DNA from: an uncultured bacterium
GTDB lineage: Bacteria; Patescibacteriota; Andersenbacteria; UBA10190; CAIZMI01
Length of the DNA stretch: 64,000 bases
Direction of reading: 5' to 3'
Assembly: GCA_903934015.1 (NCBI GenBank)
Contig: CAIZMI010000034.1
Coordinates: forward strand, 20,378 to 84,377
The first letter of the stretch is position 1; each line of letters starts with the position of its first letter. This document shows positions 2,519-57,898 of the stretch, one piece after another. Position numbers and translations under genes: made by a program. The notes under the pieces are model-generated. The model was not told where the DNA came from. It searched no databases and was given only the letters and a program-made list of their open reading frames with translations.

Positions 2519-3286
2519 TTGTTGGTAATTTGTCATTATTGTGTTAAAAAATTAACAATGACCACACACGCCACCGTCAAAACAGTAAAAAAACTTCACA
2601 ATATTATTATCGACCTTCTTTTCCCGCCCGCTTGTGTGGGCTGTGATAATTTTGGCCCCTGGCTTTGTGACGATTGCCTTAAAAACATCGGCGCCCCGAT
2701 TGAAACCTGTATTTTTTGCAATGAAAAAACATTGCACGGACTTACCTGTGGTGATTGCCGGAAACACAACAGCTTAACAGGTATCATCAGCATTGGTGGC
2801 TACAAAAATCCGGTATTAAGAAACAGTATCCATGCCCTTAAATTTTCAGGCGTGCGCGATATCGCCGAACCATTAGGAGATTTGTTAGCTAAGAGCATCT
2901 TAAAAACTTTAGGGAGCGATTTAAACGGTTTTTCCATTATTCCCATGCCATTACATAAAAAACGGGAAAGAGAACGCGGTTTTAACCAATCGGCATTACT
3001 CGCCGACAGAATCTCTTCCTTGCTTTCCATTCCAGTCGCCAACCTTTTAATCCGCGAAAAAGCCACGACGCCTCAAGCGTCTCTCAATTCAAAAATGTTA
3101 GACTTGCGCCAAGAAAATATTGCTGATGCATTTATTATCAACCCGGAATATACGGCAATAATGCCTAAAAAAATAATTATCTTAGATGACGTAGCAACCA
3201 GTGGCTCAACCCTCAACGAAGCAACAAAATTATTAGGTGAAAAAGGAGTAAAAGAAATCTGGGGCGCGGTGGTTTGCCGAGGATAG
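2519..3286 (+). CDS. comFC: ComF-family competence protein (phosphoribosyltransferase domain, N-terminal Cys-rich zinc finger)
   Basis: N-terminal CxxC…CxxC pairs and a C-terminal PRTase motif (IIILDDVATSGSTLNEA). The alternative start at 2558 is equally possible. Confidence 0.8.
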   Translation: MLVICHYCVKKLTMTTHATVKTVKKLHNIIIDLLFPPACVGCDNFGPWLCDDCLKNIGAPIETCIFCNEKTLHGLTCGDCRKHNSLTGIISIGGYKNPVLRNSIHALKFSGVRDIAEPLGDLLAKSILKTLGSDLNGFSIIPMPLHKKRERERGFNQSALLADRISSLLSIPVANLLIREKATTPQASLNSKMLDLRQENIADAFIINPEYTAIMPKKIIILDDVATSGSTLNEATKLLGEKGVKEIWGAVVCRG

Positions 3287-7022: not shown

Positions 7023-7436
7023 CTATTTAATAATGTCTCTTTTTATTAAATCCGGTAATATTTTATTTCTGATAATCGGCGATACCCTATCTGTTACCAA
7101 ACCTTCCCTTCCCAACCAACTGAATTTCACTATCTCGTGCGAAGGAATTGGAACACCTACTATTTTACCAACATACAGCCGTATCGAAACGTCCTTGGTT
7201 GCATCTCCGGCGGCCACATCAACATATTCACCAACAAACTCCAAACTTTCTTTATCCAGCCGAACAGCAAGCTCTTCTCTGATCTCGCGAGCCAGACAAA
7301 CAATATCAGATTCACCATCTTCAATCCGCCCTCCAGGCAAAATATAGTCCGTGGTAAAATTATCCTTTTCACAAACCATGAACATTTTCTGATCTTCCGA
7401 CAATAGAAGTAACCCCACCTTGTTAAAATAAGCCAT
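7023..7436 (-). CDS. Nudix hydrolase
   Basis: Nudix box GGRIEDGESDIVCLAREIREELAV. Confidence 0.8.
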   Translation of the reverse strand: MAYFNKVGLLLLSEDQKMFMVCEKDNFTTDYILPGGRIEDGESDIVCLAREIREELAVRLDKESLEFVGEYVDVAAGDATKDVSIRLYVGKIVGVPIPSHEIVKFSWLGREGLVTDRVSPIIRNKILPDLIKRDIIK

Positions 7437-9282: not shown

Positions 9283-9849
9283 TTAACCACCAAACTTGAT
9301 TACCCACTGTTTAAACTTAATAACACCATCTTTATTGTGTTTTTTAATTCCCGCCAATATTTCTTCACTACTTTTTTCCACTGCCCCACCGTCACCTTTT
9401 TTAGAAAAAAATTTATCAGAAAAGCAAATAATCTCTTCCTCTATCGTGACCGGTTGCATATTACGTTTTGGCAATTTCAATTTCTGATTTTCAATATCTT
9501 CAACCGACAACCCCACACCAACATGTCGCTCACAAACAAGAGCGTGCTTTGCAAGACCTTCTTTTTCCAACAACTCTCTTCCTAAGTAGCCGTGACAAAT
9601 GTAGGGCATCGTTCCATGACAATCAATCTCAGGAGCACTGGTTAAAAATATCCCCACGTCATGCAACATCCCCGCTTCTTCAATAAACTGCATATCGGGA
9701 TTAAATTGTGGTACCTTCCTTGCAACCTCAAGCGCCTTGTTTGTCACCGCCAAACTGTGCGCCAATAAAATCGAATAAGCCCGCGAATCGGGCAAGTAGT
9801 ATTTTTGCAGTAATTTAATGGGTTCCATTTTTAAATTTTTCAGAACCAT
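9283..9849 (-). CDS. HD-domain phosphohydrolase
   Basis: H…HD motif (LLAHSLAV…MLHDVGI). The start is taken at the internal Met (MVLKNLKMEPIKLL) to avoid overlapping the upstream gene. Confidence 0.7.
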   Translation of the reverse strand: MVLKNLKMEPIKLLQKYYLPDSRAYSILLAHSLAVTNKALEVARKVPQFNPDMQFIEEAGMLHDVGIFLTSAPEIDCHGTMPYICHGYLGRELLEKEGLAKHALVCERHVGVGLSVEDIENQKLKLPKRNMQPVTIEEEIICFSDKFFSKKGDGGAVEKSSEEILAGIKKHNKDGVIKFKQWVIKFGG

Positions 9850-9883
9850 AAAATCGACTTCTTTTCGAATAACAAAAAATTTC

Positions 9884-11053
9884 CTATCGATTTCCTTTTG
9901 CCCGATTGTGCGTCTTACACAACATCTCACAATTTTTAGCTGTTGTTTTACCACCCTTGCTCCACGCCGATACGTGATCGGCTTCCATTTCACCAAAACT
10001 CCAAATTTTACACTTGTTAGCATCATGGCCAATTACACAATTTGAGCAATTTGATTGACCTTTTTTCTCTGCTTTAGCGGTCTGTGTTGAGTAAATACTT
10101 CTCTTTGTTGCTTCATCAAAGATTCGAACGTCAAGCAATTTTGTGTCAGTGGAGCCGCCGAGAATATACTCAAAAATGCCTTTGCGATTTTTGACGTACG
10201 GATCACCATAGAGCTTTCGTACCTCGCCTGTCACCTTAACGGGATCATAAGCTTTCTTATGGTATTGCTCATATAGTCGCCCCCACTCCAGTCCTCGCAT
10301 CTCACTTTCAACATCTATAAACACACTTGAAACCCAATCAACTACACTACCGAAATACCTTTTCAGCTCGGCAACATTTTTATCAAAACGATGTCGGCTC
10401 ATATAATCGCCAACGTTGCCTTTGCTTACCCAATCAAGCGCACGCTCCAAAAAATCCTGCCTGTTAACACTACCCGCTACATACGCGCCCCATTTTTGGA
10501 TGTTGGCATTTTGGCTATTGCTAAACTCTTCTTTACCAAGCGTCACAAATGGCCCAGAATACACGGCGTTAAGCAACTCCTGATTATTAAGTGGAACTCC
10601 GGCGATGTTGATTGTTTTAAACCATTCTTTTATCTCGCTTTCTTTCCCTTCGCATTCGTAAATAAGCAATGTTGTTATTAAAATTTTATCCTGCTTGTCT
10701 TTTGCCATACCACTAAAATTTTGTGGATTGCCGTTTTCATCTTTGATGGCAAATTTATCAGTCACAAAACGTCCAATACTTGTTATACGTTGTTGCCCAT
10801 CCAAAACTTCCAGCCCATCGTCATCGACTTTATTAAAATAAATTAGGCCAATCGGATAGCCCTTAAGGATTGACTCAATAACAGCTACTTCTTTTTTACC
10901 GCCGTCGGAAGAATATATGTAGTTGCGCTGATATTCTGGCTGAATCGTTAATTTGCCAGACAAGCCAAACAACCCCTTGCCCTCCAATTCGTTATAAACG
11001 AATCCTTCGCAAATAGCTTTGATGGTAATTTCGATTTTCAAAGTAGTTTTCAT
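9884..11053 (-). CDS. DUF262 (ParB-like, DGQQR motif) plus C-terminal HNH endonuclease; GmrSD-like nuclease
   Basis: The [11 protein letters not shown] motif is in the N-terminal half. The C-terminus has an HNH signature ([14 protein letters not shown]…[11 protein letters not shown]…[15 protein letters not shown]). The start codon at 11053-11051 lies 1 nt after the upstream methyltransferase stop. Confidence 0.7.
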
Positions 11054-11054
11054 A

Positions 11055-12230
11055 TTATTTTTTTTTATGTCTAATGAGTACTCTTTGATAAACTTTTTCA
11101 TGTAAACCAGCTCGAATAACTACTCCACTTGCATTCAAATCATAAACTCCCCTTTTTTTGAATTTATCTAAATATGCTTGCTTACATTCCGTTGATTTGT
11201 ACACTTTTGTTTTTAGTTTATATAAATCTTCGTTTTCACACATCCCAACAATACCAAACTGTTCTGGGGAGTGTTTATCAAGAAAACTAATCGGTACACC
11301 CATTAATCCGTTGTAATCACTTGGAATATTTTTTACTAAAGATACTTCTAAGGCATTATAATTATCGTATTTTTCAAATGGTTTTTTCGTTACAAACTTA
11401 ATAATCTCGGCTTCAGTCATGAGTGGCAACGGCTGATGACGACGTCCATGATCAAGATTGGTGAACCAACGAACACCTTGCACTCGGGTGATATAAACTT
11501 TCTTACCTCTCTCATTTGTTTTAATTTCACGAACTTGATCCAAATTAGCAATCTTTTCGGGTATCTCAAAAAACATCGCGCCAGCATTGACTTTGTAATT
11601 GTTGCCCAACCACACTTTATTCTCTTTAATTAGTGGAAATATTTCTTTGTAGGTAATTGCATTCAAGTTGCCAATGATCAAAAACTTTTTATCATAATCA
11701 ACAAGTTGTTTTATATACTCGCGAAACAGGCTAAACGGAGGATTTGTTACCACAATATCAGACTGCTTCAGAAATTCTATAGATTCATTGCTACGGAAAT
11801 CGCCGTTTCCTTTAAGCAGAGTTGTTACATTTTGATCCTGCCTCAACAAACACTCTATATCCTCAAGGTTTACTGCACCATCATTATTTAAATCTTTTAC
11901 CTCATTGATTTCAATTTTGAACGGCTGTTTTCTAGTGAACCTTCTTAATCCTTCTATCCCAGACAACGGAAATATAGTGCCGGTAATAGGTGATGGAACA
12001 TAACTTGTAGTAATAAGTTTTTTAAGTCCAATATTATTGAATTTTAATACAAAGTATTTGAAAAAATTACTTTCATACGGATCGTCACAGTTGCAATACA
12101 CTACTTTGCCTCGAAACACATCAGGATTGTATTCCAAATACGCTTCAATCTCTTTCTGGATATCTACGAATTGCGTATAGAACTCGTCGTTCTTTACTCT
12201 TTTTGCGTTAGTAAGATTTTTGTTTGCCAT
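11055..12230 (-). CDS. DNA methyltransferase, adenine-type (EcoRI-methylase-like N-terminus, NPPF catalytic motif)
   Basis: KNDEFYTQ near the N-terminus and the motif IV sequence [13 protein letters not shown]. Confidence 0.75.
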
Positions 12231-12465: not shown

Positions 12466-12552
12466 ATTTCATTTGCGGAGAGGGTGGGATTCGAACCCAC
12501 GAAACCCTTGCGGGTTTAATGCATTAGCAAAGCATCCTCGTAGGCCTCTTGA
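12466..12552 (-). tRNA. tRNA-Ser (anticodon GCT), type II
   Basis: Minus-strand ggagagg acceptor; long variable-arm hairpin aaaccc-gcaa-gggttt; T-arm gtggg-ttcgaat-cccac. The anticodon loop ttGCTaa is closed by a weak T-T pair. Confidence 0.75.
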
Positions 12553-12580
12553 GTACCTCTCCTTGCGTAAAAACCATACC

Positions 12581-13633
12581 TTATTTGTTCATCTTTCTCA
12601 AGTGCTTTGGATTATGAGAACCAATAAGTTCTATGTATTGTTTTACAGCTGCCCTACTCTCGATAAAAATATCTCGATCCCGCATATTTGCCCAAACACC
12701 GATTTTGCGGAGAGATTCGTGAACTGAATTAAGCAAAGGCGGAGAAGCGGATGTAAAACTAATCTTTTTGTAGCGATAATCTTTGCCTCTTATACGATAT
12801 TGATGCCAATAAACCGAACCATCCGTATCAAAAAGACCTCGAATACAAGGAATTAAATAATTCCGCTTTCTCTTGATCCACATTGGAATATCTATTTTTT
12901 GTCTAATTTTGTTTCCCTTAACCAGACCCAAGTGTTCTATACAAAAGTGAACCATCTCCGTCCGGCTTACGCGATAATCGTTTGCTAAAGCATCTTTACT
13001 AATTATCACGCTCGGTCTAACTCCAAACAATTTCTGAATTAAACTGCATACAAAGATACCGTATTCATGATCATCATACCTGTGTAACGTAACAGTTAGT
13101 TGATAACGGGTTATTCCACCATCACCAAGCATCAATCCGACAAACTCGGCTAATTCCGGTGATTTCATAGGCTTTCTAAACGGCAAACTTTTCCAAAGTA
13201 TTTTGTGTTCTTGATATTTCCCTTTCTCATTCCACCATTTTGTCCACTGCACTCGGCGATAATCCTCATCCATACCAATCCGTCCATATTTTTTAAACAT
13301 TGCTTTACCACCCAAACTGCCAATTTTTTCAAGGCGTTTATTCCATTTTAATAAACTGGCAGAGGTAGGTATTTGTACTCCGCTTTTTTGAGCTAGCGTT
13401 TTAGCGTGGATAAATGACATGTGATACTTCTCTCTCTTCCAATCACAAAGCGTACGCCTATTAATGGCCAACAAACCGGCTAAGAATGGTGTTGATACAT
13501 TTAATTTTGAAGCAACGTTTTCAATAAATTTGCGTTGCTCTTCAGGTTCAAAAATGATCCTGTCTAACTTATCCACTTCATCTATCATGTGGTAATTATA
13601 CAACAAATACGAACATTTTACGAACGTCATTGT
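12581..13633 (-). CDS. double-motif LAGLIDADG homing endonuclease, free-standing
   Basis: Two LAGLIDADG motifs, FVGLMLGDGGI and IRGLFDTDGSV. The start is taken at the internal Met (MTFVKC…) because the 5' extension of the ORF covers a conserved structured non-coding element. Confidence 0.7.
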   Translation of the reverse strand, partial: TMTFVKCSYLLYNYHMIDEVDKLDRIIFEPEEQRKFIENVASKLNVSTPFLAGLLAINRRTLCDWKREKYHMSFIHAKTLAQKSGVQIPTSASLLKWNKRLEKIGSLGGKAMFKKYGRIGMDEDYRRVQWTKWWNEKGKYQEHKILWKSLPFRKPMKSPELAEFVGLMLGDGGITRYQLTVTLHRYDDHEYGIFVCSLIQKLFGVRPSVIISKDALANDYRVSRTEMVHFCIEHLGLVKGNKIRQKIDIPMWIKRKRNYLIPCIRGLFDTDGSVYWHQYRIRGKDYRYKKISFTSASPPLLNSVHESLRKIGVWANMRDRDIFIESRAAVKQYIELIGSHNPKHLRKMNK

Positions 13634-13639
13634 TTTTGC

Positions 13640-13737
13640 ACAATCCGATTCTTGTGCAAAACAGCATTCGCGTTTAGCGAATGCTGTTTTGTGTACATTT
13701 TTTTGTTTCACTAAGCGAAACAAATCTCGAGTGTCCC
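13640..13737 (-). repeat. conserved tRNA-linked module 1 (Arg-locus copy)
   Basis: The minus strand reads ctcgagatttgtttcgcttagtgaaac…aatgtacacaaaaca, a hairpin (cagcattcg…cgaatgctg), then ttttgcacaagaatcgga. The element at 63660-63760 after tRNA-Glu is near-identical, and the Lys copy at 6158-6245 is related. Confidence 0.6.
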
Positions 13738-13830
13738 CGGCAGGACTTGGCCTCGCCTCAAAAATACTGATGTATTTTTGGGCTGGCCACCGCCTCGTGT
13801 TATCTTCGAATAACACTCCGGCGTTCAAGT
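13712..13830 (-). repeat. palindromic element: inverted copies of the tRNA-Arg 3' end (15 bp, ccccggcaggacttg) flanking a two-hairpin core
   Basis: The core (cgccggagt…hairpin…acgaggcggtggccagccc…hairpin…gaggcgaggcc) also occurs inside the interrupted tRNA-Arg copy at 14035-14137. Both hairpins show compensatory base changes between the two copies. Confidence 0.55.
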
Positions 13831-13889: not shown

Positions 13890-13963
13890 TGTCCCCGGCA
13901 GGACTTGAACCTGCAACCTTCAGCTCCGCAAGCTGACGCTCTGTCCAGTTGAGCTACAGAGAC
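13890..13963 (-). tRNA. tRNA-Arg (anticodon GCG, inferred)
   Basis: Acceptor gtctctg pairs with cggggac through two G-U pairs. D-arm gctc-aactggac-agagc; anticodon stem tcagc/gctga with loop ttGCGga; T-arm gcagg-ttcaagt-cctgc; discriminator A. Confidence 0.7.
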
Positions 13964-14270: not shown

Positions 14271-14828
14271 TCAAACTCTGGGATTAGCCTTATTTGGCAT
14301 CCGACTTCGTCCCTTATTTCCCGATGCCACTGCGCGAAGAACAATATCACGATCAGTTGCATAAGTAATTTTTCTTAATGCTTCCCTGACTGGCATCCAA
14401 CGCGCTTCAAGCAACCCTTCTTCCGCCTGCGCATGCAATTCACCATCTAGTGATTCCATTAAATAATAATGAACGGTCTTTGTAATTCGTCCGCGTTCAG
14501 TAAAAAAATGATAACGAGTAGAACCAAGTTGACGCTTAAGAACAAGATTGCTAAGACCCAACTCTTCCTGACTTTCGCGCACAGCGGCTTGATCCTGTGT
14601 TTCTCCTAACGCAATTTCTACGTGACCCTTAGGCAAAATCCACACTTCGCCACGTGCGTGCTCTGTTCTTAAGAGCGCAACATGCACCCTCCCATCAATC
14701 CTGCGCACAACAACACCACCGGCAGACTCTTCCGACACACCCGCCACTTTGCAATGTGGTTTTTTGAGTAGCCGTGAAGAACCAGTTTCATTTTCCGGCG
14801 GTTTTGTTGTCCCCAATAAATCATTCAT
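14271..14828 (-). CDS. Nudix hydrolase
   Basis: Nudix box GHVEIALGETQDQAAVRESQEELG. Confidence 0.8.
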   Translation of the reverse strand: MNDLLGTTKPPENETGSSRLLKKPHCKVAGVSEESAGGVVVRRIDGRVHVALLRTEHARGEVWILPKGHVEIALGETQDQAAVRESQEELGLSNLVLKRQLGSTRYHFFTERGRITKTVHYYLMESLDGELHAQAEEGLLEARWMPVREALRKITYATDRDIVLRAVASGNKGRSRMPNKANPRV

Positions 14829-14832
14829 ATAA

Positions 14833-16626
14833 TTAATTTGTTTTTATTATTACTGGTTTTACCGGAATAACGATCTTTGGTTTAGGCGTCGACAATGGAA
14901 GAGGTGTTGGTGTCGGCGCCACAACAACTTTTTCCGCGTTAGCCGCCACAACGTGAGGAAATAGCGCCGGTGATTTATATGAACTTAAAATTATATCTTC
15001 CCTAACCATCTGCCCCGCTTTATAAACTTGCTGCACTAAACGCGCTTTTACAGAACCACTCGCCGTTCGATCATAAGAAGTTGGTCCTACAATTTTAACT
15101 TCCCTGCCATCCGATGTACCCCAAAATTCAAAAAACAATTTCGTTCCCTCAACTCTTGTCTGAATAAGAATATTAGCCGGTGTGTCGTTAACAAATTTCA
15201 AATCGGTCCCGTCTTTCCAGGTGCGCTGATTAGGATAAATCGTTGCGTCAAAACCGGGCGCGCCATAATACGCTACAGGATAAGCGTGATTACTGCGTTC
15301 TACTATTTGCAAACCCGACAAAATGGCAGCACGAAAAGCCGTCGTTGATACCTGACAAAGACCGCCACCATATTCCGGCGTTGTCACATTTTCCTTAATT
15401 ACTAATTCCGGTTTGTATCCGGTGGCTTTACCAACCGGCCCCAAATTTTCATTAAAAGCGAAAGTTGTACCCGGTGGAATCAACACACCGTTAAAGCGTT
15501 CCGCTCCCACTTTGATATTATGAACGCGATTAACCGGGCTTCCGCGAAAATTAGTTTCCCCGGTGCTCAACAATGTCGTAATCCCAAGGCGATCTATATC
15601 CACCGTTGATGCCACCTTAGACTTACTGACACTAAGCGCCAAATTAGCCTCCGTTTGACCACTTTCCACTGCAGACCGAATAGTAACGATACTTCCTTCT
15701 ACGTTTAATTCTTGACCTTCCTGGGCTGGCACAAATACTGTTACCCGATTATTCTCCATCGCAAAACTAGCATCTCGTGTTTCTTTTTGAACCTGCGAAA
15801 CAATTGTGCTTTGTAAATAATCCCTTAATAAATTTTGGGAAAAAGTCACCACTGGCTTACCGTCAACACGTTCCAATAAAAGTAATTGCGCAAAATTCGC
15901 TTTCGGAACTTCAATTGTTTGAACACCCGCCTTTAAAACAAAAGTACTCGCAAGAATTTTCTCAACCTTAGGTTTTAACTCAAGCGCCTGTTGATCATCA
16001 ACCTCAGGTTGCGTAGGTAACAAAGTTAGCTCCACCGGCGCAATATCACCCGCGTTATAACGCGCCAGAACGTCAGACGCGAGTTTTCGCCGATCAATCA
16101 GTTCACCTGATTGTGAAGAAGTAAGTTGTAATTTTCCGGAATCATCCACCACCCAATTAGCTGATTGCGGAGTTTTAATCTGGCCATTTAAAACATCTTC
16201 TAGATATTTATCAAAAATCGGCTTATAAACCAACACCTGCAAAGGTACTTTTTTATTCACAAAACCACTAACTGATTCATTTAACCAAATCGCTCCAGCG
16301 CGTGGCTTTCCAAAATTAATTGCTGTTGTAACCGCCGTTTTTACCTGCGGACTGACACCAATTTCAGTAAATGTTGGTTCTGCCACCAACACACCGCCAA
16401 TATTTAACTTAATCCTTGCCGTATACCTCTCTCGCTCTTGCTCACGCACCTTTGCCTCAGAAAAAACGGCATCTAAATTGCCAACAAAAACGTCGTTTAT
16501 CCAAACATGAGGCAAAATACGTGTTTTATAATAAGAAGTTACAAAACCCAAAACTCCAAAACAGAGTACTAAAACCCCAATCACGCCAAATATTCCCCAA
16601 TAGATTATTGCTTTTTTTCGCTTCAT
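14833..16626 (-). CDS. VanW-like protein with N-terminal TM anchor
   Basis: VanW signature GGGLCQVSTTAFRAA, an N-terminal signal/TM segment, and a Pro/Thr-rich C-terminus. Confidence 0.75.
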   Translation of the reverse strand: MKRKKAIIYWGIFGVIGVLVLCFGVLGFVTSYYKTRILPHVWINDVFVGNLDAVFSEAKVREQERERYTARIKLNIGGVLVAEPTFTEIGVSPQVKTAVTTAINFGKPRAGAIWLNESVSGFVNKKVPLQVLVYKPIFDKYLEDVLNGQIKTPQSANWVVDDSGKLQLTSSQSGELIDRRKLASDVLARYNAGDIAPVELTLLPTQPEVDDQQALELKPKVEKILASTFVLKAGVQTIEVPKANFAQLLLLERVDGKPVVTFSQNLLRDYLQSTIVSQVQKETRDASFAMENNRVTVFVPAQEGQELNVEGSIVTIRSAVESGQTEANLALSVSKSKVASTVDIDRLGITTLLSTGETNFRGSPVNRVHNIKVGAERFNGVLIPPGTTFAFNENLGPVGKATGYKPELVIKENVTTPEYGGGLCQVSTTAFRAAILSGLQIVERSNHAYPVAYYGAPGFDATIYPNQRTWKDGTDLKFVNDTPANILIQTRVEGTKLFFEFWGTSDGREVKIVGPTSYDRTASGSVKARLVQQVYKAGQMVREDIILSSYKSPALFPHVVAANAEKVVVAPTPTPLPLSTPKPKIVIPVKPVIIKTN

Positions 16627-16736
16627 TGAGCGTAAACTTATAAGTCAGATCTAAATATAATTTACATAGAAACTACATAAGACGCAAGACAAGAGTCGCG
16701 AATAAAAATACCATCCGTGGTCTTGCCTAGTGTTTT

Positions 16737-16916
16737 AGGCAACTGACTTAAATAAATTGTCAATATTCTGTTCAATACGCTTTGAATACGAGTACTGCGA
16801 CCGAACGAAAGCTTGAAGCGTACTAGCAGTACGTTAAGAGATTTAGTGACCGAGCAGTGCTTGTAGTCAAAGATGTATAGAAAATAAGATGGATAGGTTA
16901 TTTACGTCAGTCGCCT
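16737..16916. repeat. MITE-like 180-bp element with ~19-bp terminal inverted repeats (copy 1)
   Basis: About 80% identical over its full length to 57719-57898. The ends are aggcaactgacttaaataa and ttatttacgtcagtcgcct. Confidence 0.65.
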
Positions 16917-16920
16917 TAGC

Positions 16921-17331
16921 CTAAAGATACTTTTCAATTAACATTTTTGTTGCGTCTGTAATAGCGATTCTAAATAGTTCATCTTTAGTAAAATAACCCG
17001 CACCGGCCCCTTCTTGCACGGTGATATCACTCCACTCAACCGGTTTATTGTAGTGCACAACATATACTGCTCTATCATCCTTTGGACGCAATTCTCCCAC
17101 TAAATTAAAATATTCTGATCCAGCATAAATATTCAACTCTTCTTTAGTTTCTCGAACCGCACCAACAATAGGATCCTCATCTTCTGTAAGACCACCACCA
17201 AAAAAATTCCACTTTAGAGGATTACAAATACCTTCCGAGCCATCTCGCATTTGAACAAGGTATTTTCCGCTTGAATTTTGCATAATCGTATTTACACTCT
17301 TCTTCATATCAATAACAATTGTAAACCCCAT
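16921..17331 (-). CDS. Nudix hydrolase
   Basis: Nudix box GGGLTEDEDPIVGAVRETKEELN. Confidence 0.75.
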   Translation of the reverse strand: MGFTIVIDMKKSVNTIMQNSSGKYLVQMRDGSEGICNPLKWNFFGGGLTEDEDPIVGAVRETKEELNIYAGSEYFNLVGELRPKDDRAVYVVHYNKPVEWSDITVQEGAGAGYFTKDELFRIAITDATKMLIEKYL

Positions 17332-17464
17332 TAAACATAAAAAAAAGAGAAAGCATTTGTTCCTTATCTAAGTATTCAGATGAAGATCGAAGCAAGATCG
17401 AATAAAAAAGCGCACTCGATGAATTGAGTACGCAAGAGGCGAAAGAACGGCCAGTCTCCATGTT

Positions 17465-18187
17465 TTACGATGTAGGTGAAGTTGGTGCTACCACACCAAA
17501 GCGAAAACATGGTTGGTAAAGCTGATCTGGATTTTCTGTCAAAAACAAACTTCGCCCCATGAATTCTCGCCTAGCAACCAGTTTAAGCACAATGTCTGTG
17601 TATATGGGGTTTTCTTCAAAAGGAACCATCTTCAGGACATTGACCAAACCTCGACTGCTCAAGTTTTCAATGAAGTGGGAAACTCCAGGCTCTTTGCGTG
17701 GAATCTCGTGTATTTCTGGTTTGAGCCGAGAAATATCAGATCTACTCGTAATAGCCCTCTCCAGGTTTTCCAGAAACGAACGCAGAAGACGTGATGAATG
17801 TTGTGAAAAAACCTCCTTCCATTGTTCAGGAATATTTTCAGGGTGTACTACCCCACTCCATGACTGAGACAGAGAATGACACCATACCATAGCATCATAC
17901 TTTTTTGCTTCGTTCACGGTTGCAGTGAGTTCCAATGTCGGCAGTCTTGCAACGGCTGCTTGGATATCTGCAAAAGCAACGATTTCAGATGGGTACTTGA
18001 AATCTGGAATCCGGCCGAACATTTCATGGATGCCGAAGAGCCACTCTAGGTACTGCCCGACGTGTTCGGTCTGTCTGTTATGAACACAAACTAGCGTATC
18101 AACGTCCGAGTACCTTTTGTCTTTTTCAACAGCGAAGCTGCCGAAGATGTAGGCAAAAACCAGTTGGTCTCCAAAAATGCGCTGCAC
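17465..18187 (-). CDS. nucleotidyltransferase-fold protein (polymerase-beta-like NTase)
   Basis: The GSFAVEKDKRYSDVDTLV segment has the G[SG]…D.D signature. Composition is GC-richer than neighbours, and the gene abuts the IS3 left end. Confidence 0.55.
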   Translation of the reverse strand: MQRIFGDQLVFAYIFGSFAVEKDKRYSDVDTLVCVHNRQTEHVGQYLEWLFGIHEMFGRIPDFKYPSEIVAFADIQAAVARLPTLELTATVNEAKKYDAMVWCHSLSQSWSGVVHPENIPEQWKEVFSQHSSRLLRSFLENLERAITSRSDISRLKPEIHEIPRKEPGVSHFIENLSSRGLVNVLKMVPFEENPIYTDIVLKLVARREFMGRSLFLTENPDQLYQPCFRFGVVAPTSPTS

Positions 18188-18269
18188 GGCTTCCTGAAAT
18201 TGAGCCGTTATGACTTCATGTTCTATAGTGGTACCCAGAAACTGGACAGCCAGCTAAGATACAAAAGTT

Positions 18270-18566
18270 ATGCAAAATACTATAAAAAGACAGCACTCAC
18301 CAGAGTTCAAATCGCAAGTAGCAATAGAGGCGATAAAAGAAGTTGAGACGATTGCACAGATCGCATCCAAGCATTCAATCCACCCGACCCAAATCAACAA
18401 GTGGAAAAAAATAGCACAGGATGGTTTGGCCATATTGTTCTCCGGCAAACAAGATGTCGAGCTGAAGAAAAAAGATGAGCTGATTGAACAGTTATACAAA
18501 AAAATCGGTAAACGTGAGGTCGAACTTGATTGGCTTAAAAAAAAGACTGGCCTTCTCGACAACTGA
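18270..18566 (+). CDS. IS3-family transposase OrfA (HTH plus leucine zipper)
   Basis: MQNTIKRQHSPEFKSQVAIEAIKE… matches the IS3 OrfA N-terminus. A slippery A6G run sits at 18539-18545. Confidence 0.8.
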   Translation: MQNTIKRQHSPEFKSQVAIEAIKEVETIAQIASKHSIHPTQINKWKKIAQDGLAILFSGKQDVELKKKDELIEQLYKKIGKREVELDWLKKKTGLLDN

Positions 18567-19386
18567 AAAACGCAGTTTGATCGAGCAAGAAAACCCCGCG
18601 CTTTCCATCGCTTCGCAATGTTCTTTATTAAAACTTCCGCGTTCCACATTCTACTTTCCGCCTAAGTTAATTCTGCCGGAAAAGTCCGTTACGCTGATGC
18701 ATAATATCGATGAGATCTATACTGATTTCCCGTACTATGGTGGCAGAAAGATTAAGGTGGAATTGGTAAAACGTTTCAAGAAGATTGTCGGTCGCAAAAC
18801 AATCCGCAAGCTGATGCGGATCATGGGTCTGGAAGCGATCTATCCGAAGCCAAACACGAGCAAACCAAATCAGCAACATGCTACTTACCCGTATCTCCTG
18901 AAGGGTATCATCGCCGCTTATTCCAATCATATTTGGGGCACTGATATCACATACATCCGGGCTGGCAAATACTGGTTTTATCTTTCGGCAATTCTTGACT
19001 GGCATTCCCGTTATGTTGTCAGCTGGACGCTGTCCGAAAATATCGATACCGCGCTTTGTTTGGAAACTCTGGAAAAAGGACTGGCAATTGCCAAACCCCT
19101 TATCCACAATTCCGATCAAGGCAGTACATATACGGCGGAGGAATATCTAAACCATCTCAAGCAAGCCGAGGTGCAAATCAGTATGGATGGTGTTGGCAGA
19201 TGCATGGACAACATCTTCACGGAACGATTATGGCGGACGGTGAAATACGAAGAAGTCTATCTGCACGCGTACGGCAGTTTCAAAGAAGCTATGCAATCGT
19301 TGAAATTATACTTTAATACATACAACGAAAAACGGGTGCATCAAGCACTCGAATACCGCACACCGGCAGAAGTGTACTTTAAATAA
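18484..19386 (+). CDS. IS3-family transposase OrfB (DDE integrase core, rve)
   Basis: DDE region …HNSDQGSTYTAEEY…ERLWRTVKYEEVY… OrfB is in the +1 frame relative to OrfA, not the expected -1. Confidence 0.75.
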   Translation: MNSYTKKSVNVRSNLIGLKKRLAFSTTEKRSLIEQENPALSIASQCSLLKLPRSTFYFPPKLILPEKSVTLMHNIDEIYTDFPYYGGRKIKVELVKRFKKIVGRKTIRKLMRIMGLEAIYPKPNTSKPNQQHATYPYLLKGIIAAYSNHIWGTDITYIRAGKYWFYLSAILDWHSRYVVSWTLSENIDTALCLETLEKGLAIAKPLIHNSDQGSTYTAEEYLNHLKQAEVQISMDGVGRCMDNIFTERLWRTVKYEEVYLHAYGSFKEAMQSLKLYFNTYNEKRVHQALEYRTPAEVYFK

Positions 19387-19470
19387 TAAGTTAAATTTTA
19401 CTCAAGAAAGGAGGTGGTGAAAATTCTATCTTAGATTTGCCCAAATACTGTCTTGACACTGGTTACCACT

Positions 19471-20721
19471 TTATTCCCAGCTTCCTTTTGTTCTAGAAAC
19501 ACCGGCAAACATTTGTTGTCCACGAGGAGATAAAAAGTTGTAAATCTCACGAGGAATTAACAGGGGTTTGGCAATCCGTAATCCTCGGTACGCAACTGAC
19601 GATGCTCCAGGACTGTAACCACCAAACTCTTCAGTACCTCGTTCAATGTCGTGGATAGTACGATCTTTTAGGATGATGCTTCCACATACTCCAGTGACGT
19701 AATCACTTTCGCCAAACAGGGAAACATACATCTCCTTTTCTTGATAGCGAGTATTAGGATCGCTGAAGTAGAGAGCCAGTTCACGATCATGTTCATACTC
19801 GGTTACCAGAAAGAGCGGGGCGTACAACTCCGTGAAGTTCTGCAGTTGACGGAGGGAGACTCTGACAACACATGGGCACATGACATTATGTTTCAGATCA
19901 ATCTGTCCACCGTATATAATCTCTCCTCCTTGTTGTCGCATTTCAGAGATCAGATTTGCGACATCAAGCAACGAGGAAGCTTCAAACAGTGGACCCACAA
20001 CGACATCATCTGCTGTGTAATCTTTATCGCAGCGTACCTGAGCGAGTTTTTTCAGCAAGCTCTTTACGTAGGCATCGACGATTGAACTGTGTACTAAGAT
20101 AATATCTGGACCAGCACAGTCTTGCCCGTTGTTGAACAACTTGACCTGCAGTGTTTTTTTGACAGCAAGGTCAAGATCTGCGCTAGGAGTTACCACCAGA
20201 GGGTTGTGACCCACACCGCTGAACAAAAGCAGTGTATCTTTGCTACAGGCTTTTCGGATACGCAGGAAGTTCTCGTACTTACCAGTAAAAAGAACAACAG
20301 AAGCATTTGCACAGTGTTCAATAAGAAAATCATCTCGTGAACCTTCAAAGGCTTGAATGTTTGAATAATACTCCCCGAGGGAGAGCCGTTCAAACAATTC
20401 AGCAAATAACTCTTTCATCCGCTGAGGAGGACGAACCATCAGCGACACAGATTGGTATGCAGGGAGGGCTGCAAATAGAACGAATGAATACAGAGGAAGG
20501 TTCAGAGGCAGGAAGGTTGCAGTTTTTTGGGCAAGAGGAGTGATTGGGAAGTACTGTTGGATTTCTCCGATACTTCTCAATGCTTCAATAGAACGCCTCA
20601 CTTCATCATCGACGACTTCTTTGCTTTGGTACTTGCGAAGAATTTCGTGAATTATAGCAACGTTCAATTCCAGGTGACCAGCAAAAGACTGAGCATGATC
20701 GACCACATTGGTGTACAGCAT
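19471..20721 (-). CDS. aldehyde dehydrogenase superfamily / acyl-CoA reductase-like protein
   Basis: Catalytic NNGQDCAGPD motif; 416 aa; GC-richer than the surrounding genome. Its stop codon abuts the IS3 right end. Confidence 0.65.
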   Translation of the reverse strand: MLYTNVVDHAQSFAGHLELNVAIIHEILRKYQSKEVVDDEVRRSIEALRSIGEIQQYFPITPLAQKTATFLPLNLPLYSFVLFAALPAYQSVSLMVRPPQRMKELFAELFERLSLGEYYSNIQAFEGSRDDFLIEHCANASVVLFTGKYENFLRIRKACSKDTLLLFSGVGHNPLVVTPSADLDLAVKKTLQVKLFNNGQDCAGPDIILVHSSIVDAYVKSLLKKLAQVRCDKDYTADDVVVGPLFEASSLLDVANLISEMRQQGGEIIYGGQIDLKHNVMCPCVVRVSLRQLQNFTELYAPLFLVTEYEHDRELALYFSDPNTRYQEKEMYVSLFGESDYVTGVCGSIILKDRTIHDIERGTEEFGGYSPGASSVAYRGLRIAKPLLIPREIYNFLSPRGQQMFAGVSRTKGSWE

Positions 20722-20855
20722 CGAATTTCTCCCTTGGTTGTGAATGAGCTTTCAGTAACTGAATACATAGAGACACCTAAAACCTATTTTCAAGTCATTT
20801 TGCTTGACTATTAATCATAATCATTTTATAAGTTAATGCAAATCAACCTATTCTT

Positions 20856-21626
20856 ATGATGAAGCTTACATTTATTGGCAGTGGTTGCTGGCAAGGAATT
20901 CCAGCGCCTTTTGGCGATGATGAAATTAGCAAAAAAGTAGAATGGGGTTCGAAGGATTTTCGTTTTAGAACATCGCTTCATGTCGAAACTGAAAATGCAA
21001 AAAGTATTATTCTAGAAGCAACACCAGATATTCGATTACAGTCTTGGAAATTCAAACTGAAGAAACCAGATGCTATCATTATCTCACATTGGCATTGGGA
21101 TCATTTGTTCGGCTTACTTGATTTAGACTGGTTTGTCTCAAAAAACCCACTTGTTGTATATGGAAATAGTGTAACAAAAGATTGGTATGACAAGAGAATG
21201 GGTCATATTAAGGTTGATTTTCAGGTATTCAAATCTTACAAATCATTCCAGATCGATAATATTAAAATTACTCCCCTAGAGGTGAATCACGTCGACAAAA
21301 CTGACGGCTTCTTGCTTGAAGACATGAATACGGGGAAGAAAATGGCATATCTTTCTGACCTTCATGGAATACCAGAAAGAACTAACCAGCTTATTAAAAA
21401 TAGTGATTTAGTCATCACCGATGCCACCTACTTAGCTTCGTATATTAATGATGATCCAACGCATTTACAGAAGGATCAGATTGTTCCCTTTCTGGAAAAG
21501 TTAAGTGCCAATGAGATTATTCTTACTAATATAGGTTCATATCAAGGCATGACACATGACGACTTTGAAAAAAAGTTTTCGCAATATACGATTGCATACG
21601 ATGGGATGGAACGACAATCCTCATAA
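20856..21626 (+). CDS. MBL-fold metallo-hydrolase
   Basis: HWHWDH metal-binding motif. Confidence 0.75.
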   Translation: MMKLTFIGSGCWQGIPAPFGDDEISKKVEWGSKDFRFRTSLHVETENAKSIILEATPDIRLQSWKFKLKKPDAIIISHWHWDHLFGLLDLDWFVSKNPLVVYGNSVTKDWYDKRMGHIKVDFQVFKSYKSFQIDNIKITPLEVNHVDKTDGFLLEDMNTGKKMAYLSDLHGIPERTNQLIKNSDLVITDATYLASYINDDPTHLQKDQIVPFLEKLSANEIILTNIGSYQGMTHDDFEKKFSQYTIAYDGMERQSS

Positions 21627-21734
21627 ACATTTCATATAAAACAATGAATCTCCCCCGAGCACCACACCCGGAGCATTAGAAAAAAATCAAACAAACAACT
21701 AATTTATTTTGTTATTTCGATTCCACGCTGAAAC

Positions 21735-23267
21735 CTAGTTTTCTCCCGGTTTATAACCGACAGTTACGTTCGTTCCTACCGGCAGAGCATCTTTTGAGCC
21801 CTCAATCGGTAAGCGCACAAAGAAAGTTGAACCACGACCAAGCCCCGGACTGTCTACCCAGATATCACCATGATGTTCACGACAAATTTTGCGCGCTACG
21901 TACAAACCCAACCCTGAACCATCAGTGTGGTACTTTTCCGCTCCACCCACACGGGTGAATTTCACGAACAAACGACCAATATCCTCTGCGGTCACCCCCT
22001 TGCCAGTGTCCTGAACTGAAAAAGTAAGAAAATCATCTTCTCGAATCACCCTAACATCGACTTGTCCTGAATTTGTGTACTTAATTGCGTTATCCACGAC
22101 ATTTAATACAACTTGTCGAATACGTTGAGAGTCAGCAACCACATGAGGCATACCAGCTTCGGATTGGTGAAAGTTCAAAACCAAATTCTTTTTCTTTGCG
22201 TTTGGCGAAAGTTCTGTGACAATTTCTTGTGCCATTTTTGCCAAATCCACCGACCGAAGCGACAGTTCCAACCTCCCACTTTCGATCCGCGACACATCCA
22301 AAAGATTTTTAATAAGCTCAATCAAACGTTCACTCGACTGGTATAGAATTTCCATAATCGGTTGTTGCTTAACACTCACTTTTCCATAATCCCCTTCTTG
22401 CACCATCGAAAGATAGCCTTTAATCGCCGTTAACGGTGTGTAAAGCTGATGCGAAGCAATGCTTAAAAACTCACTCTTGGCTTTATCCAATTGGGCCAAA
22501 CGATCATTTGCTTCACGTAAGTCTTCAGTGGTTTTTTGTAAATCCTCATAAATTTTGGATTTGTAAATTGCCAACGAAACAAGACCAATAATACCGGAAA
22601 TAGCTTCCCTCTCGTATTGTGAAAGATTATTTAGATCACGACTGGCTGTGAGAATTAAAACGCCTAATGCCTGTTTACTTTGCGAAAGAGGATAAATCAG
22701 CGAACTCTTAAGATTTTTCCCCACCGATGTTTTGGCCACCTGCTCAACAAAAGAAACAGGATAAACACTGGAATATCCATCGATAACATGGGCTTGATGT
22801 TCCCGCATTGCCTCCTTGGCGATATCCACATTCTGCAGTGACTCTTCAAAATTATCTAATGTTTTCTTCTTCAGAATCTTATTTATTTCCGACACGGGAG
22901 ATGTAACCGAAAGCCAACGCATCTTGTCATCATTATTATCATTTCTAAATACGGAAATAGCAGCCAATTCATAACCGAGCTCTTGCCCAATAGCGATTGT
23001 TACCCTTGATGACATATCTTCCATACCAATAGATGTCATAGAAACTTCATCCAATTTTCTAAGTAAAGCCAGTGTCTTGTTACGAATAGCTAATTCCGCG
23101 TTGCGCTTATACAACTCGCGATTTACCTGAGACAGCAAACCTCCCTCACCATCAATTTGCTCATCGTTATTTTCCTTCTTTTTACTTTTCGGATACTTAT
23201 CCACACGCATAAAAAGTAGCTCTTTTATTTTTCCAAGGAAACCGTTACTCATGTTTTTATTATACAT
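21735..23267 (-). CDS. sensor histidine kinase (GAF-like N-terminal region, HisKA, HATPase_c)
   Basis: H-box LSIASHQLYTPLTAIKGY; the N, G1 and G2 boxes are present (DTGKGV…GSGLGL). The start is uncertain; an alternative start lies at 23315. Confidence 0.8.
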   Translation of the reverse strand: MYNKNMSNGFLGKIKELLFMRVDKYPKSKKKENNDEQIDGEGGLLSQVNRELYKRNAELAIRNKTLALLRKLDEVSMTSIGMEDMSSRVTIAIGQELGYELAAISVFRNDNNDDKMRWLSVTSPVSEINKILKKKTLDNFEESLQNVDIAKEAMREHQAHVIDGYSSVYPVSFVEQVAKTSVGKNLKSSLIYPLSQSKQALGVLILTASRDLNNLSQYEREAISGIIGLVSLAIYKSKIYEDLQKTTEDLREANDRLAQLDKAKSEFLSIASHQLYTPLTAIKGYLSMVQEGDYGKVSVKQQPIMEILYQSSERLIELIKNLLDVSRIESGRLELSLRSVDLAKMAQEIVTELSPNAKKKNLVLNFHQSEAGMPHVVADSQRIRQVVLNVVDNAIKYTNSGQVDVRVIREDDFLTFSVQDTGKGVTAEDIGRLFVKFTRVGGAEKYHTDGSGLGLYVARKICREHHGDIWVDSPGLGRGSTFFVRLPIEGSKDALPVGTNVTVGYKPGEN

Positions 23268-40374: not shown

Positions 40375-40995
40375 ATGCAAAGTCATAACCCTAATCCCGA
40401 CGATAAATTAATTTGGACGGAAATATCAAGAAAACAATTATTCGAGAAATTTTCTCGTGGCATTGATGATGTTGTCTTCAAATTTCCTGATAATCAAATA
40501 CACCATTATTTTATTAAAAATGAGCCGGACACGGTCTGCACACTGGCTTTTGATCAAAATAATCAGGTTATTTTGGCACAACAATTTCGACCCGGTCCAC
40601 AAAAGGTTCTTCTCACGCTCCCTGGAGGAGGCCTAGAGCCTGGTCATGATCCCATTTCAAGTGCCACAAGAGAACTAATGGAAGAGGTTGGTTACGAAAG
40701 CCATCTCAATCTCACTGCAACCTTTTTTGATGACGGGTACTCTACAAGCAGACGCTATTGTTTTTTAGCTGTAAATTGTACGAAAACAAATATCCAAAAA
40801 CTAGATCCGACAGAATTTATCAACACTGTTCAACTGCCCATTGATATCTTTATGGATGAACTCCGAAACGGAAGTATTACTGATCCGGAAGCAGCCTATG
40901 CTGCAATAGATTTTATTAATAAAAATGCGGATTCTCGGAAAGAATACAGCGACTTAAGTGAGTTGTTCAAAAAAACAATATATACGGCTTATTAA
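40375..40995 (+). CDS. Nudix hydrolase
   Basis: Nudix box PGGGLEPGHDPISSATRELMEEVG. Confidence 0.8.
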   Translation: MQSHNPNPDDKLIWTEISRKQLFEKFSRGIDDVVFKFPDNQIHHYFIKNEPDTVCTLAFDQNNQVILAQQFRPGPQKVLLTLPGGGLEPGHDPISSATRELMEEVGYESHLNLTATFFDDGYSTSRRYCFLAVNCTKTNIQKLDPTEFINTVQLPIDIFMDELRNGSITDPEAAYAAIDFINKNADSRKEYSDLSELFKKTIYTAY

Positions 40996-43718: not shown

Positions 43719-43961
43719 TTATTTCAAATGTCTTCGCAATAAAAATTTTGTGGTGAGTTTTAGTTTTCTGTCTATGCGCAAATCATCAACGATTTTTGCC
43801 AAATTTTGCCAATCTTCTTCTGTCAAATAACGCCACAACAGACGGTTGATGAAGCGACTGTAATATTGACGTTCTTCCGCTGTATTCCGCCATGGCTGTT
43901 TGCACAACATTCCGTCCCAGTTGGTTAACGCCTCAAGATCCGAAGATGAATAGTTCATCAT
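43719..43961 (-). CDS. small conserved hypothetical protein (80 aa) translationally coupled to the upstream NTase gene
   Basis: ATGA overlap with the 43958-44629 gene. A pseudogenised paralog lies at 41437-41739. Confidence 0.5.
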   Translation of the reverse strand: MMNYSSSDLEALTNWDGMLCKQPWRNTAEERQYYSRFINRLLWRYLTEEDWQNLAKIVDDLRIDRKLKLTTKFLLRRHLK

Positions 43962-44629
43962 AAGGTCGTACTGTTAATTAATTTATCTATTTGTGCTGTA
44001 ACTAATTCAATATTTGTTATGCCGTCACGTAAAAACATCTCCGGCCTTAATTGAAACTGCTCCCTTTTCGCAACAAGCTCGCTTAATAATTTTTCTTCAC
44101 CAATCGTTCCCAAACGAAATTTCTTTTCTGCGATTTCAGCAAGATTACGAAGAGACCAATTTTGTTTTTTTGTAAGAAAGGCAATATCGATATAATCCTT
44201 AATTTCATCTCGCGAACAAAGCGCCGACGCTTTGCCGGCGGCCGCATCTTCCAAACTCGCCGTTGCCAATGTTCCAAACACTACAAAGCTCCCAATTTGG
44301 GAAATATTATCGTGTACCGCGTCAATCACCATTCCACTGGCCTTATCCATCCAACCGCGATCAGTATCGACAATTTGATCAACACCAAAAAGCTCTTGCG
44401 CCAAACGGTGCAACCGGATCATCCGTTGGTTAAATACAAGCGCATCAACTTCCGGATAAGTAAAAAAATCAAGATCATTTGATTGTCGCGGAACAATACC
44501 CAACGCTTTTAATAATGTGCCACCGGTCAAATAAAAAGTACGCGCCAGTTCAACATCGTCAGCCACGTTTTTAATCACCTCCAATTGCGGTTCAGTTAAA
44601 TCTTGCAACTCATCAATTGTTCTAATCAT
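43958..44629 (-). CDS. nucleotidyltransferase of the AbiEii/DUF1814-like toxin family
   Basis: YLTGGTLLKALGIVPRQSNDLDFF resembles the AbiEii GGTAL…R.S.D.DF motif. Confidence 0.55.
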   Translation of the reverse strand: MIRTIDELQDLTEPQLEVIKNVADDVELARTFYLTGGTLLKALGIVPRQSNDLDFFTYPEVDALVFNQRMIRLHRLAQELFGVDQIVDTDRGWMDKASGMVIDAVHDNISQIGSFVVFGTLATASLEDAAAGKASALCSRDEIKDYIDIAFLTKKQNWSLRNLAEIAEKKFRLGTIGEEKLLSELVAKREQFQLRPEMFLRDGITNIELVTAQIDKLINSTTL

Positions 44630-50737: not shown

Positions 50738-50780
50738 CCGAAAACCCGAAGCCGGACACAAACTCGTGTCCGGTATTTTT
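50738..50780 (+). terminator. rho-independent terminator
   Basis: Hairpin ccggacacaaactcgtgtccgg followed by tatttttttaa. Confidence 0.6.
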
Positions 50781-50787
50781 TTAATAT

Positions 50788-50821
50788 ATTACGTATCTTA
50801 AGGTCCGACCTTTGCAAAGGT
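50788..50821. repeat. 34-bp perfect palindrome (copy 2 of 2)
   Basis: ttaaggtccgacctttgcaaaggtcggaccttaa. Confidence 0.7.
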
Positions 50822-50844
50822 CGGACCTTAATGCGATTGTTTTT

Positions 50845-57167: not shown

Positions 57168-57674
57168 CTAAAATCCACGAACCTTTACCTTCTTTGTGAG
57201 AAGCGCGTCGGCCTTAGGAATCCGAATTGTAAGAATTCCGTCCTTTAAAGATGCGTCAGCTTTTTCCGAAACAATATCAACAGGCAAAATAATCGAACGG
57301 GAAAAAGATCCCCAATAGCATTCGCGATAAAAATAGTCTTCTTCCGTTACTTCTTCATCGTGACGCCTGGTACCACGAATTGTCACCATGTCATTAGTAA
57401 TCGAAACGTCCAAATCATCAGGTTTTACCCCGGCAATGGTTGACTTAACAACAATGAATTCGGGTGTTTGATAAACATCAACAGTTAACTGCCCTTCTTG
57501 TTCATCCATCGCGCCATTTTTTTCTGCACGGGTTATCGGTAAGCTTTTCGATGGTTCAATTTTTTCATCGTCGGAACGCATTTCCACAACTTGCTCGTCA
57601 TCATCACCCTCGATGTCAACATCGTGGCCGGCCGAACCTGTTAGGCGTTGAAATAGTGATCTTCGTTCTCCCAT
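57168..57674 (-). CDS. Hsp20/alpha-crystallin family small heat-shock protein
   Basis: ACD core (…VDVYQTPEFIVVKSTIAGVKPDDLDVSITNDMVTIRG…LKDGILTIRIPK). Confidence 0.85.
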   Translation of the reverse strand: MGERRSLFQRLTGSAGHDVDIEGDDDEQVVEMRSDDEKIEPSKSLPITRAEKNGAMDEQEGQLTVDVYQTPEFIVVKSTIAGVKPDDLDVSITNDMVTIRGTRRHDEEVTEEDYFYRECYWGSFSRSIILPVDIVSEKADASLKDGILTIRIPKADALLTKKVKVRGF

Positions 57675-57718
57675 ATAGAAACATTATAACAAAAACCCTA
57701 CAAAAATACCAACTACTT

Positions 57719-57898
57719 AGGCGACAGACATAAATAACATTTCCATATTCTGTTCAATACGCTCTGAATACGGTTACTGCGATTGAACAAAATCTTGAGG
57801 CGTACTGTAAGTACGATGAGAGATTTTGTGATTGAGTAGTAATTGTAGTCAGAGATGTAGTGGACATAAGATGGATAGGTTATTTACGTCCGTCGCCT
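57719..57898. repeat. MITE-like 180-bp element with terminal inverted repeats (copy 2)
   Basis: Ends are aggcgacagacataaataac and gttatttacgtccgtcgcct. The element abuts the valS stop codon. Confidence 0.65.

Follow-up and report, generated by a model that had tools for sequence, protein, structure and literature searches.

A 180-nt palindromic intergenic element, probably a rare, low-copy bacterial MITE, in a putatively CPR/Patescibacteria-like host

Introduction

Mobile elements are poorly catalogued in CPR/Patescibacteria, a group with very small genomes. The MITE RUP is paired with IS630-Spn1 and moves in trans through an IS630-family transposase with TA duplication, and Tourist-like MITEs of the IS5-family/PIF-Harbinger type produce a 3-bp TWA duplication and have ends that often start with GG. 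REPs are units of 20-40 nt that are usually clustered and accompanied by a RAYT gene in the genome. PATEs, which derive from IS200/IS605, have separate subterminal hairpins, lack terminal inverted repeats and insert on the 3' side of a fixed 4-5-nt motif; the IS110 family does not use inverted ends.

Bacterial MITEs have been profiled as A+T-rich elements shorter than 200 bp with inverted ends, TA at their termini and a target duplication; they form long stem-loops with A-G and U-U mispairs, and they are recognised by means of filled and empty sites (PMC2229807). The hairpins of the Correia/NEMIS elements have been proposed as RNase III substrates (PMC2229807). Our literature search found no paper on MITEs in CPR/Patescibacteria. 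Here, we describe a 180-nt element present in two copies in a 64-kb stretch of DNA from an uncultured bacterium (the window, meaning the whole stretch analysed).

Results

Two copies with sharp borders

We aligned the two copies (Table 1) with each other and with their surroundings. The results showed 148 of 180 positions to be identical without a gap (82% overall identity; BLASTN E=7e-49), in agreement with the first-pass annotation, which had claimed two 180-nt copies of about 80% identity. With the terminal T[TA]A...TWA included (184 nt), 151 of 184 positions agreed, likewise without indels. The flanks (100 nt per side) were unrelated, and the similarity started and stopped exactly at the inverted termini, the sequences of which had also been read correctly at the outset (aggcAacTgac and aggcGacAgac at one end, ttatttacgtcAgtcgcct and ttatttacgtcCgtcgcct at the other). 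A search of the 64-kb window with an nhmmer profile built from both copies yielded no further copy. Five further assemblies of this strain carry copy 1 with 100% identity, and the G+C content of the element was 39%, compared with 41% for the window.

Both copies are intergenic and have the neighbours first assigned to them, namely a Nudix gene and a vanW-like gene for copy 1, and the valS stop codon and the hsp20 upstream region for copy 2; as a refinement, all flanking genes lie on the minus strand. Copy 1 is located 4 nt past the stop codon (16921-16923) of the 136-aa Nudix gene and approximately 108 nt ahead of the VanW start (16626). The ValS protein shared about 50% identity with proteins of the "Patescibacteria group" and of Portnoybacteria, and VanW shared 35-46% with Andersenbacteria proteins; we infer from the sequences that the host belongs to an uncultured CPR/Patescibacteria-like lineage. 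The 64 kb contain at least four separate Nudix hydrolase genes (7023-7436, 14271-14828, 16921-17331 and 40375-40995), together with two EPSP-synthase-fold (murA-like) paralogues near 53-56.5 kb, and this density of Nudix genes and murA-like paralogues is unusual for a small genome.

Table 1. Positions of the two copies of the putative MITE, their parts and the neighbouring genes (window coordinates unless another contig is named)
Feature	Position	Strand	Sequence or location	Basis or remark
Putative MITE copy 1, 180-nt core AGGC...GCCT	16737-16916		between Nudix gene and VanW gene	alignment, BLASTN, nhmmer
Putative MITE copy 2, 180-nt core	57719-57898		between valS and hsp20	alignment, BLASTN, nhmmer, empty site in L026
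Copy 1, left terminal inverted repeat	16737-16755	+	AGGCAACTGACTTAAATAA	
Copy 1, right terminal inverted repeat	16898-16916	-	AGGCGACTGACGTAAATAA	read on minus strand
Copy 2, left terminal inverted repeat	57719-57737	+	AGGCGACAGACATAAATAA	
Copy 2, right terminal inverted repeat	57880-57898	-	AGGCGACGGACGTAAATAA	read on minus strand
25-nt block	16884-16908 and 57866-57890		ATAAGATGGATAGGTTATTTACGTC	identical in both window copies; 24/25 in L024
Apical loop	16825-16827 (copy 1); 57807-57809 (copy 2)	+	AGC (copy 1); GTA (copy 2)	TGC in L024
Internal-loop hexamer, copy 1	16799-16804 and 16848-16853	+ (16799-16804)	GACCGA	same hexamer, not its complement, on the other arm (16848-16853)
Internal-loop hexamer, copy 2	57781-57786 and 57830-57835		GATTGA	on both arms
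Copy 1 flanking triplet	16735-16737		TTA on plus strand (TAA on minus)	matches 16917-16919 (TAA on minus)
valS-side junction of copy 2	57897-57900	-	...ATT TAG|GCGAC	
Nudix gene	16921-17331	-		
VanW gene	14833-16626	-		
valS	57897-60635	-		
hsp20	57168-57674	-		
Extra features of L025	4260-5555 and 15442-16461 (L025)		431-aa HTH-repeat protein; IS110-family genes	

Inverted ends, conserved block and hairpin

The four ends share the consensus AGGCRACNGACNTAAATAA and form terminal inverted repeats of about 20 nt, which match within the copy at 18 of 21 positions in copy 1 and at 20 of 22 in copy 2. The best-conserved part of the family is a 25-nt block (Table 1), found twice in the window as against 0.00 times expected in window shuffles. 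Beyond the ends, weaker complementarity runs the entire length, and each whole copy is one long imperfect foldback. When the arms were compared, each copy had 64-67 Watson-Crick, 7-8 G.U-type and 16-20 transversion positions, many of the transversion mismatches being common to both copies. Stop codons were present in all six frames of both copies.

Folded as plus-strand RNA, copy 1 reached -69.6 kcal/mol (z -8.5) and copy 2 reached -86.3 kcal/mol (z -13.3), compared with -50.2 and -71.5 kcal/mol, respectively, for the minus strand; copy 2 folded as single-stranded DNA gave -45.1 kcal/mol (z -11.7). The apical loop differed in every copy, including the third one described below, while its closing 6-bp stem, CGTACT/AGTACG, was invariant. 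Further down the stem, the repeated hexamers (Table 1) face each other in antiparallel orientation as a 6x6 internal loop, in which two tandem sheared G.A motifs surround two pyrimidine mismatches. Between copy 1 and copy 2, this GA-YY-GA loop changed from CC to TT in parallel on both arms, a change that could reflect selection on a non-canonical helix or a protein site, or could have arisen by deamination of unpaired cytosines in an extruded hairpin.

We then counted how the copies differ relative to the copy 2 fold. Its 70 pairs comprised 56 that were unchanged in copy 1, 4 with one-sided conservative changes, 2 with double compensatory changes and 8 that were broken, and differences fell in 17 of 140 paired columns compared with 16 of 44 unpaired columns; these constraint counts, like the G.U counts, rest on two full copies with shared ancestry and are not statistically firm. 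The lower number of differences at paired positions and the two double compensatory changes hint at some selection on the hairpin itself. With Rfam 15 at the gathering threshold, only tRNAs were detected in the window and nothing matched the element, and at a permissive E-value both strands gave only noise in the form of plant miRNA hairpins (one scored 26.6 bits where the threshold is 249). Neither copy contains a sigma-70-type promoter or an intrinsic terminator consensus, and no T-run follows the stem.

Empty sites in relatives and a third copy

The insertion sites were compared with the corresponding loci of related genomes. In the closest relative found, L026 (ValS 85% identical, valS DNA 81%), the element was absent: valS ends in ...ATT TAA, exactly 42 nt follow, and the hsp20 ATG comes next. 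The window reads ...ATT TAG[GCGAC...GTCGC]C TAA; the 42-nt spacer comes next and aligns gap-free with that of L026. Deletion of 57719-57898 (180 nt) from the window produced a gap-free match to the L026 junction with ATTTAAG conserved; deletion of 178 or 184 nt required gaps, and deletion of 181 nt required one gap. The valS-hsp20 junction was also without the element in L027 (ValS 78% identical) and L039, and in L025 (ValS 83% identical) a different gene occupied this position. In L027, a short terminator-like hairpin is located where the window has the element. In the closest relative (sample SRR26784071), the element was absent beside both valS and vanW.

A scan of JGI metagenome contigs with the end pattern identified a third copy (L024, 2406-2510), which is partial and runs off the contig end. 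It was 85-87.5% identical to the window copies. In this other organism it precedes ispH by about 20 nt, and its orientation relative to the neighbouring gene is the reverse of that in the window. The ispH upstream region was uninterrupted in L031 and L032 (IspH 93% identical), and the homology of L024 begins right at the element end. Two of the three insertion sites are empty in related genomes, and the comparison shows that the element was inserted between valS and hsp20 and, in the L024 organism, close upstream of ispH. The tyrS genes of the two host lineages were 74% identical in DNA and 81% in protein; because the tyrS DNA is only 74% identical, the element is better conserved than this core gene, and it sits at different loci. 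Such a higher identity than that of a core gene at different loci is what mobility would predict.

For copy 1, no clean empty site was found in the relatives, which are without the whole adjacent segment of about 5 kb. This lineage-specific insertion (window ~16700-21735) is absent in L028, L029 and L030, where a histidine-kinase gene adjoins vanW; it contains a metallo-beta-lactamase-fold gene, an aldehyde dehydrogenase gene, the IS3 copy, a Pol-beta nucleotidyltransferase gene and the Nudix gene, and copy 1 is located at its vanW-side edge. In two independent short-read assemblies, a contig breaks within the element (L005 at its start, 1-55; L024 at its end, 2406-2510). Breaks of this kind happen at repeats and suggest that the repeat or the hairpin disrupts assembly and that more copies may exist than were assembled.

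Target sites

When GGC...GCC was taken as the element, the 2-bp flanks were TA/TA for copy 2, AA/TA for copy 1 and AA on the 5' side of L024, and the 3-bp flanks were TTA/TAA for copy 2, TAA/TAA for copy 1 (a perfect match) and AAA on the 5' side of L024. The triplets of copy 1 (Table 1) are a possible 3-bp duplication, read from the sequence. The base beside GGC was A at all three 5' ends, and the base beside GCC was T at both 3' ends; these bases fit a TWA or TA target preference, and they fit equally well a 180-nt AGGC...GCCT inserted without duplication. The insertion sites are short and A/T-rich (TTTAAG, CTAAAA and AAAAATTT), and the last of these, the empty version of the L024 site, has no TA. 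A strict TA duplication of the IS630 type fits copy 2, and fits copy 1 and L024 only with assumed mutations. The 5' flanks (GATT, GGCT and ATCA) share no common motif. A check for target-site duplications, proposed in the first-pass annotation, thus yielded TA flanks in copy 2 and TAA/TAA in copy 1, but no unambiguous duplication.

Effects on neighbouring genes

The valS stop codon in the window is TAG (57897-57899, minus strand), composed of the flanking TA and the first G of the element; in the empty site of the relative it is TAA. The second TA(A) of copy 2 is at 57717-57719, at the opposite end of the element, and 4 nt separate this end from the hsp20 -35 box. The hsp20 promoter reads TTGGTA-18-(TG)TATAAT at 57712-57683 on the minus strand; with just 8 nt between the end of the -10 box and the ATG, the hsp20 mRNA is probably leaderless. 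Three relatives (L026 ~3190-3215, L027 ~3255-3278 and L039 ~1965-1990) share the TGCTATAAT...ATG arrangement. A 10-mer, TGGTATTTTT, occurs downstream of both copies, in copy 2 as the hsp20 -35 region, and was rejected as part of the element, its distances of 8 nt and about 25 nt being different.

Judged from these sequences, the insertion would be neutral for the ValS protein, with TAA changed to TAG and the length of 912 aa as in L026, and the hsp20 promoter would be left intact by copy 2. The valS-hsp20 insertion would be harmless, the valS stop having been rebuilt and the element halting 4 nt short of the hsp20 -35 box. Transcripts reading through from valS or the Nudix gene would contain a very stable hairpin of 180 nt, and the Correia/ERIC-type elements suggest by analogy that it may influence the ends or the stability of the mRNA.

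Copy number and candidate transposases

The window carries one complete IS3-family insertion sequence (18224-19473) with 26-nt imperfect inverted ends (TATAGTGGTACCCAG... and ...CTGGTTACCACTTTA), an orfA (18270-18566, HTH_Tnp_1) and an overlapping orfB (18484-19386, rve). A match between the ends of the element and those of this IS3 copy had been put forward for checking; the IS3 ends (TGGTACCCAG...) proved unrelated. No transposase other than the IS3-family one was present in the window, and no Y1/HUH transposase, RAYT-like, IS630-type or IS5-type gene was found there. A scan of about 300 kb of related loci with the end consensus returned the known copies and one chance match in a coding gene, and no matching IS. 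The chance match falls within a GDP-mannose-dehydratase-like ORF, where a TIR-like 22-mer (50963-50984) agrees at 19 of 21 specified positions. Relative L025 (GCA_030647555.1) has features that are absent at the corresponding places of the window, namely a 431-aa HTH-repeat protein and IS110-family genes near hsp20 (Table 1). The 431-aa multi-HTH protein was rejected as a transposase, as it has HTH repeats only and no catalytic domain.

The window is contained in a 78.6-kb metagenome contig (ENA ERZ27313539 k141_180469). Two copies were seen in about 78 kb of this genome, extension of the source contig by about 13 kb having added none, and no copy was found in about 70 kb from five relatives. 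Scans of 185,579 GTDB representative genomes with an end-plus-gap pattern and with the conserved 21-mer found none, under patterns that demand an exact match to 19-24 specified bases and would miss diverged copies. One copy, that in L024, came from the JGI metagenome scan. Twelve viral-contig matches to a 16-base end pattern were dismissed as random, there being no element behind them; viral contigs scanned with internal blocks gave nothing, and neither did a blastn search of plasmids and phages. The description of the element as multicopy stands in that the copies are at unrelated loci and the third is in another organism; only three copies were seen, and not the high number that is typical of MITEs.

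Other features of the window

Between the tRNA genes at 12476-12562 and 13890-13963 is a 411-aa ORF (~12581-13816, minus strand) that weakly matches LAGLIDADG_3 and may be a free-standing homing-endonuclease-like gene. The region ~9283-12230 contains a cluster of EcoRI-methylase-like, GmrSD (DUF262)/HNH and HD-domain genes and looks like a restriction or defence island, and an AbiEii toxin gene is located at 43958-44629. Two strong hairpins, aaggtccgacc-tttgcaaa-ggtcggacctt and ccggacac-gagtt-tgtgtccgg, directly follow the GDP-mannose-dehydratase-like gene (50806-50835 and ~50740-50775, minus strand) and are probably terminators. Among the related loci, L002 (6463-11672) differs from L001 and L003 in that TrbL-/PrgI-like (type IV secretion) genes replace the region after the second EPSP-synthase (murA-like) paralogue; this is structural variation at the strain level, possibly an integrated conjugative element.

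Discussion

We consider it quite likely that the element is a non-autonomous inverted-repeat DNA transposon, that is, a bacterial MITE, of 180 nt with an imperfect palindrome as its body. The size, the inverted ends, the lack of coding capacity, the A+T-rich sites and the empty sites all support the non-autonomous transposable element proposed in the first-pass annotation. Under this reading, a transposase encoded elsewhere would bind the inverted ends and cut and paste the element into short A/T-rich sites, presumably with a 2- or 3-bp duplication (TA/TWA-like). Our verdict is a new, rare, low-copy MITE family in a CPR-like lineage, otherwise conventional. The family points to a transposase encoded elsewhere and accounts for the assembly breaks and the changed valS stop. 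Its absence from a relative with 85% identical ValS makes the insertion a marker for recent transposition and inter-lineage exchange, and the understanding of how MITEs work is unchanged by this element.

The features of the fold can also be read as those of a structured small RNA gene or a cis-acting RNA hairpin with a plus-strand product, the copies of which arose by duplication or transfer and not by transposition. The fold of the plus strand is better by 15-19 kcal/mol than that of the minus strand, and G.U pairing is available at 6 positions on the plus strand only compared with 1-2 on the minus strand only; the two double compensatory and four one-sided conservative pair changes, the threefold rarity of substitutions in paired columns, the variable apical loop on an invariant stem and the co-variation of the GA-YY-GA loop on both arms all agree with an RNA. 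However, of the 14 pairs that changed, 8 no longer form in copy 1, and the G.U bias and the compensation counts, taken from two full copies with shared ancestry, are not statistically meaningful. Neither strand has an Rfam match above noise, no promoter or terminator consensus fits a plus-strand unit, and the neighbouring genes are on the opposite strand. The reversed orientation of the L024 copy to its neighbour gene argues against a fixed cis-regulatory RNA, synteny is not conserved, and the sites are empty in close relatives. We regard an RNA gene as improbable and give a small chance to a minor RNA-level role as a secondary property of the element, in view of the better fold of the plus strand and the co-varying internal loop; the small-RNA alternative raised earlier stands to this extent, but leaves the insertion polymorphism unexplained. 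Still less room is left for a segmental duplication or for a chance likeness of two intergenic hairpins such as terminators, which we judge extremely improbable. Both copies do lie directly after the stop codon of a gene on the transcribed strand, a place in which terminators are found, but no T-run follows the stem, the third copy is at the 5' end of a gene elsewhere, and neither the E-value of 7e-49 nor a 25-nt block found twice against an expectation of 0.00 is compatible with chance. A segmental duplication, anticipated at the outset as only two copies within longer flanking homology, was ruled out: the borders are sharp, the flanks are unrelated and fail to align, a third copy exists, and the sites are empty in relatives.

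The manner of insertion allows for a further explanation, in which a hairpin-dependent element inserts as AGGC...GCCT without target duplication, by a non-DDE or single-strand mechanism that reads the folded hairpin. A and T stand outside GGC...GCC at all ends, even where a 2-bp duplication fails, and so look like part of the element; an exact 180-nt deletion regenerates the empty site and leaves no duplicated bases over; the element folds as single-stranded DNA (-45 kcal/mol, z -11.7); and pairing of the arms is maintained better than chance. The same data nevertheless fit a TA or TWA duplication plus one point mutation, the traits of IS200/IS605 and PATEs (no terminal inverted repeats and a fixed 4-5-nt motif) are absent here, and no candidate enzyme gene lies nearby, so we give this mechanism a small chance of being correct. 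An equally unlikely extension is that such a hairpin-recognised element, inserted without target duplication, has its plus-strand transcript or extruded DNA hairpin under selection, with a conserved G.A/A.G - Y.Y/Y.Y - G.A/A.G module; if true, it would represent a new mobilisation or RNA-function class in CPR bacteria.

Taken as a MITE, the element can be compared with the described families. It resembles Correia/NEMIS of Neisseria, RUP of Streptococcus pneumoniae and ERIC/IRU of enterobacteria in being shorter than 200 bp and non-coding, with terminal inverted repeats and TA termini (PMC2229807). Like Correia, RUP and ERIC, it is intergenic, often at gene ends, and forms one long stem-loop with A-G and U-U mispairs, a likeness of anatomy. 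Unlike RUP and Correia, which have roughly 100 or more copies per genome, it was seen at a far lower copy number, and unlike Correia, RUP and ERIC, it has a clean TA duplication in one of two full copies, with no IHF site or outward promoter identified. It shares intergenic location, palindromic structure, multiple copies and lack of coding capacity with REP/BIME and PATEs; however, its unit is 180 nt, its copies are solitary and the window has no RAYT-like gene, which separates it from REP/BIME, and it is a single continuous 180-nt foldback with inverted ends and no common 5' flank motif, which separates it from PATEs. With the Tourist/IS5/PIF-Harbinger group it has in common the flanks TAA/TAA (copy 1) and TTA/TAA (copy 2) and ends that begin with GGC, but removal of 181 nt needs one gap, the L024 flank is AAA, and no IS5-type transposase was seen. 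It departs from RUP/IS630-Spn1 in the AA/TA flanks of copy 1, in the AA at the L024 target without TA, and in that no IS630-type gene or matching IS end was found. In copy 2, by contrast, TA stands on both sides of GGC...GCC and the empty site has a single TA, as in RUP/IS630-Spn1, and by analogy with that pair, mobilisation in trans through shared inverted ends is likely.
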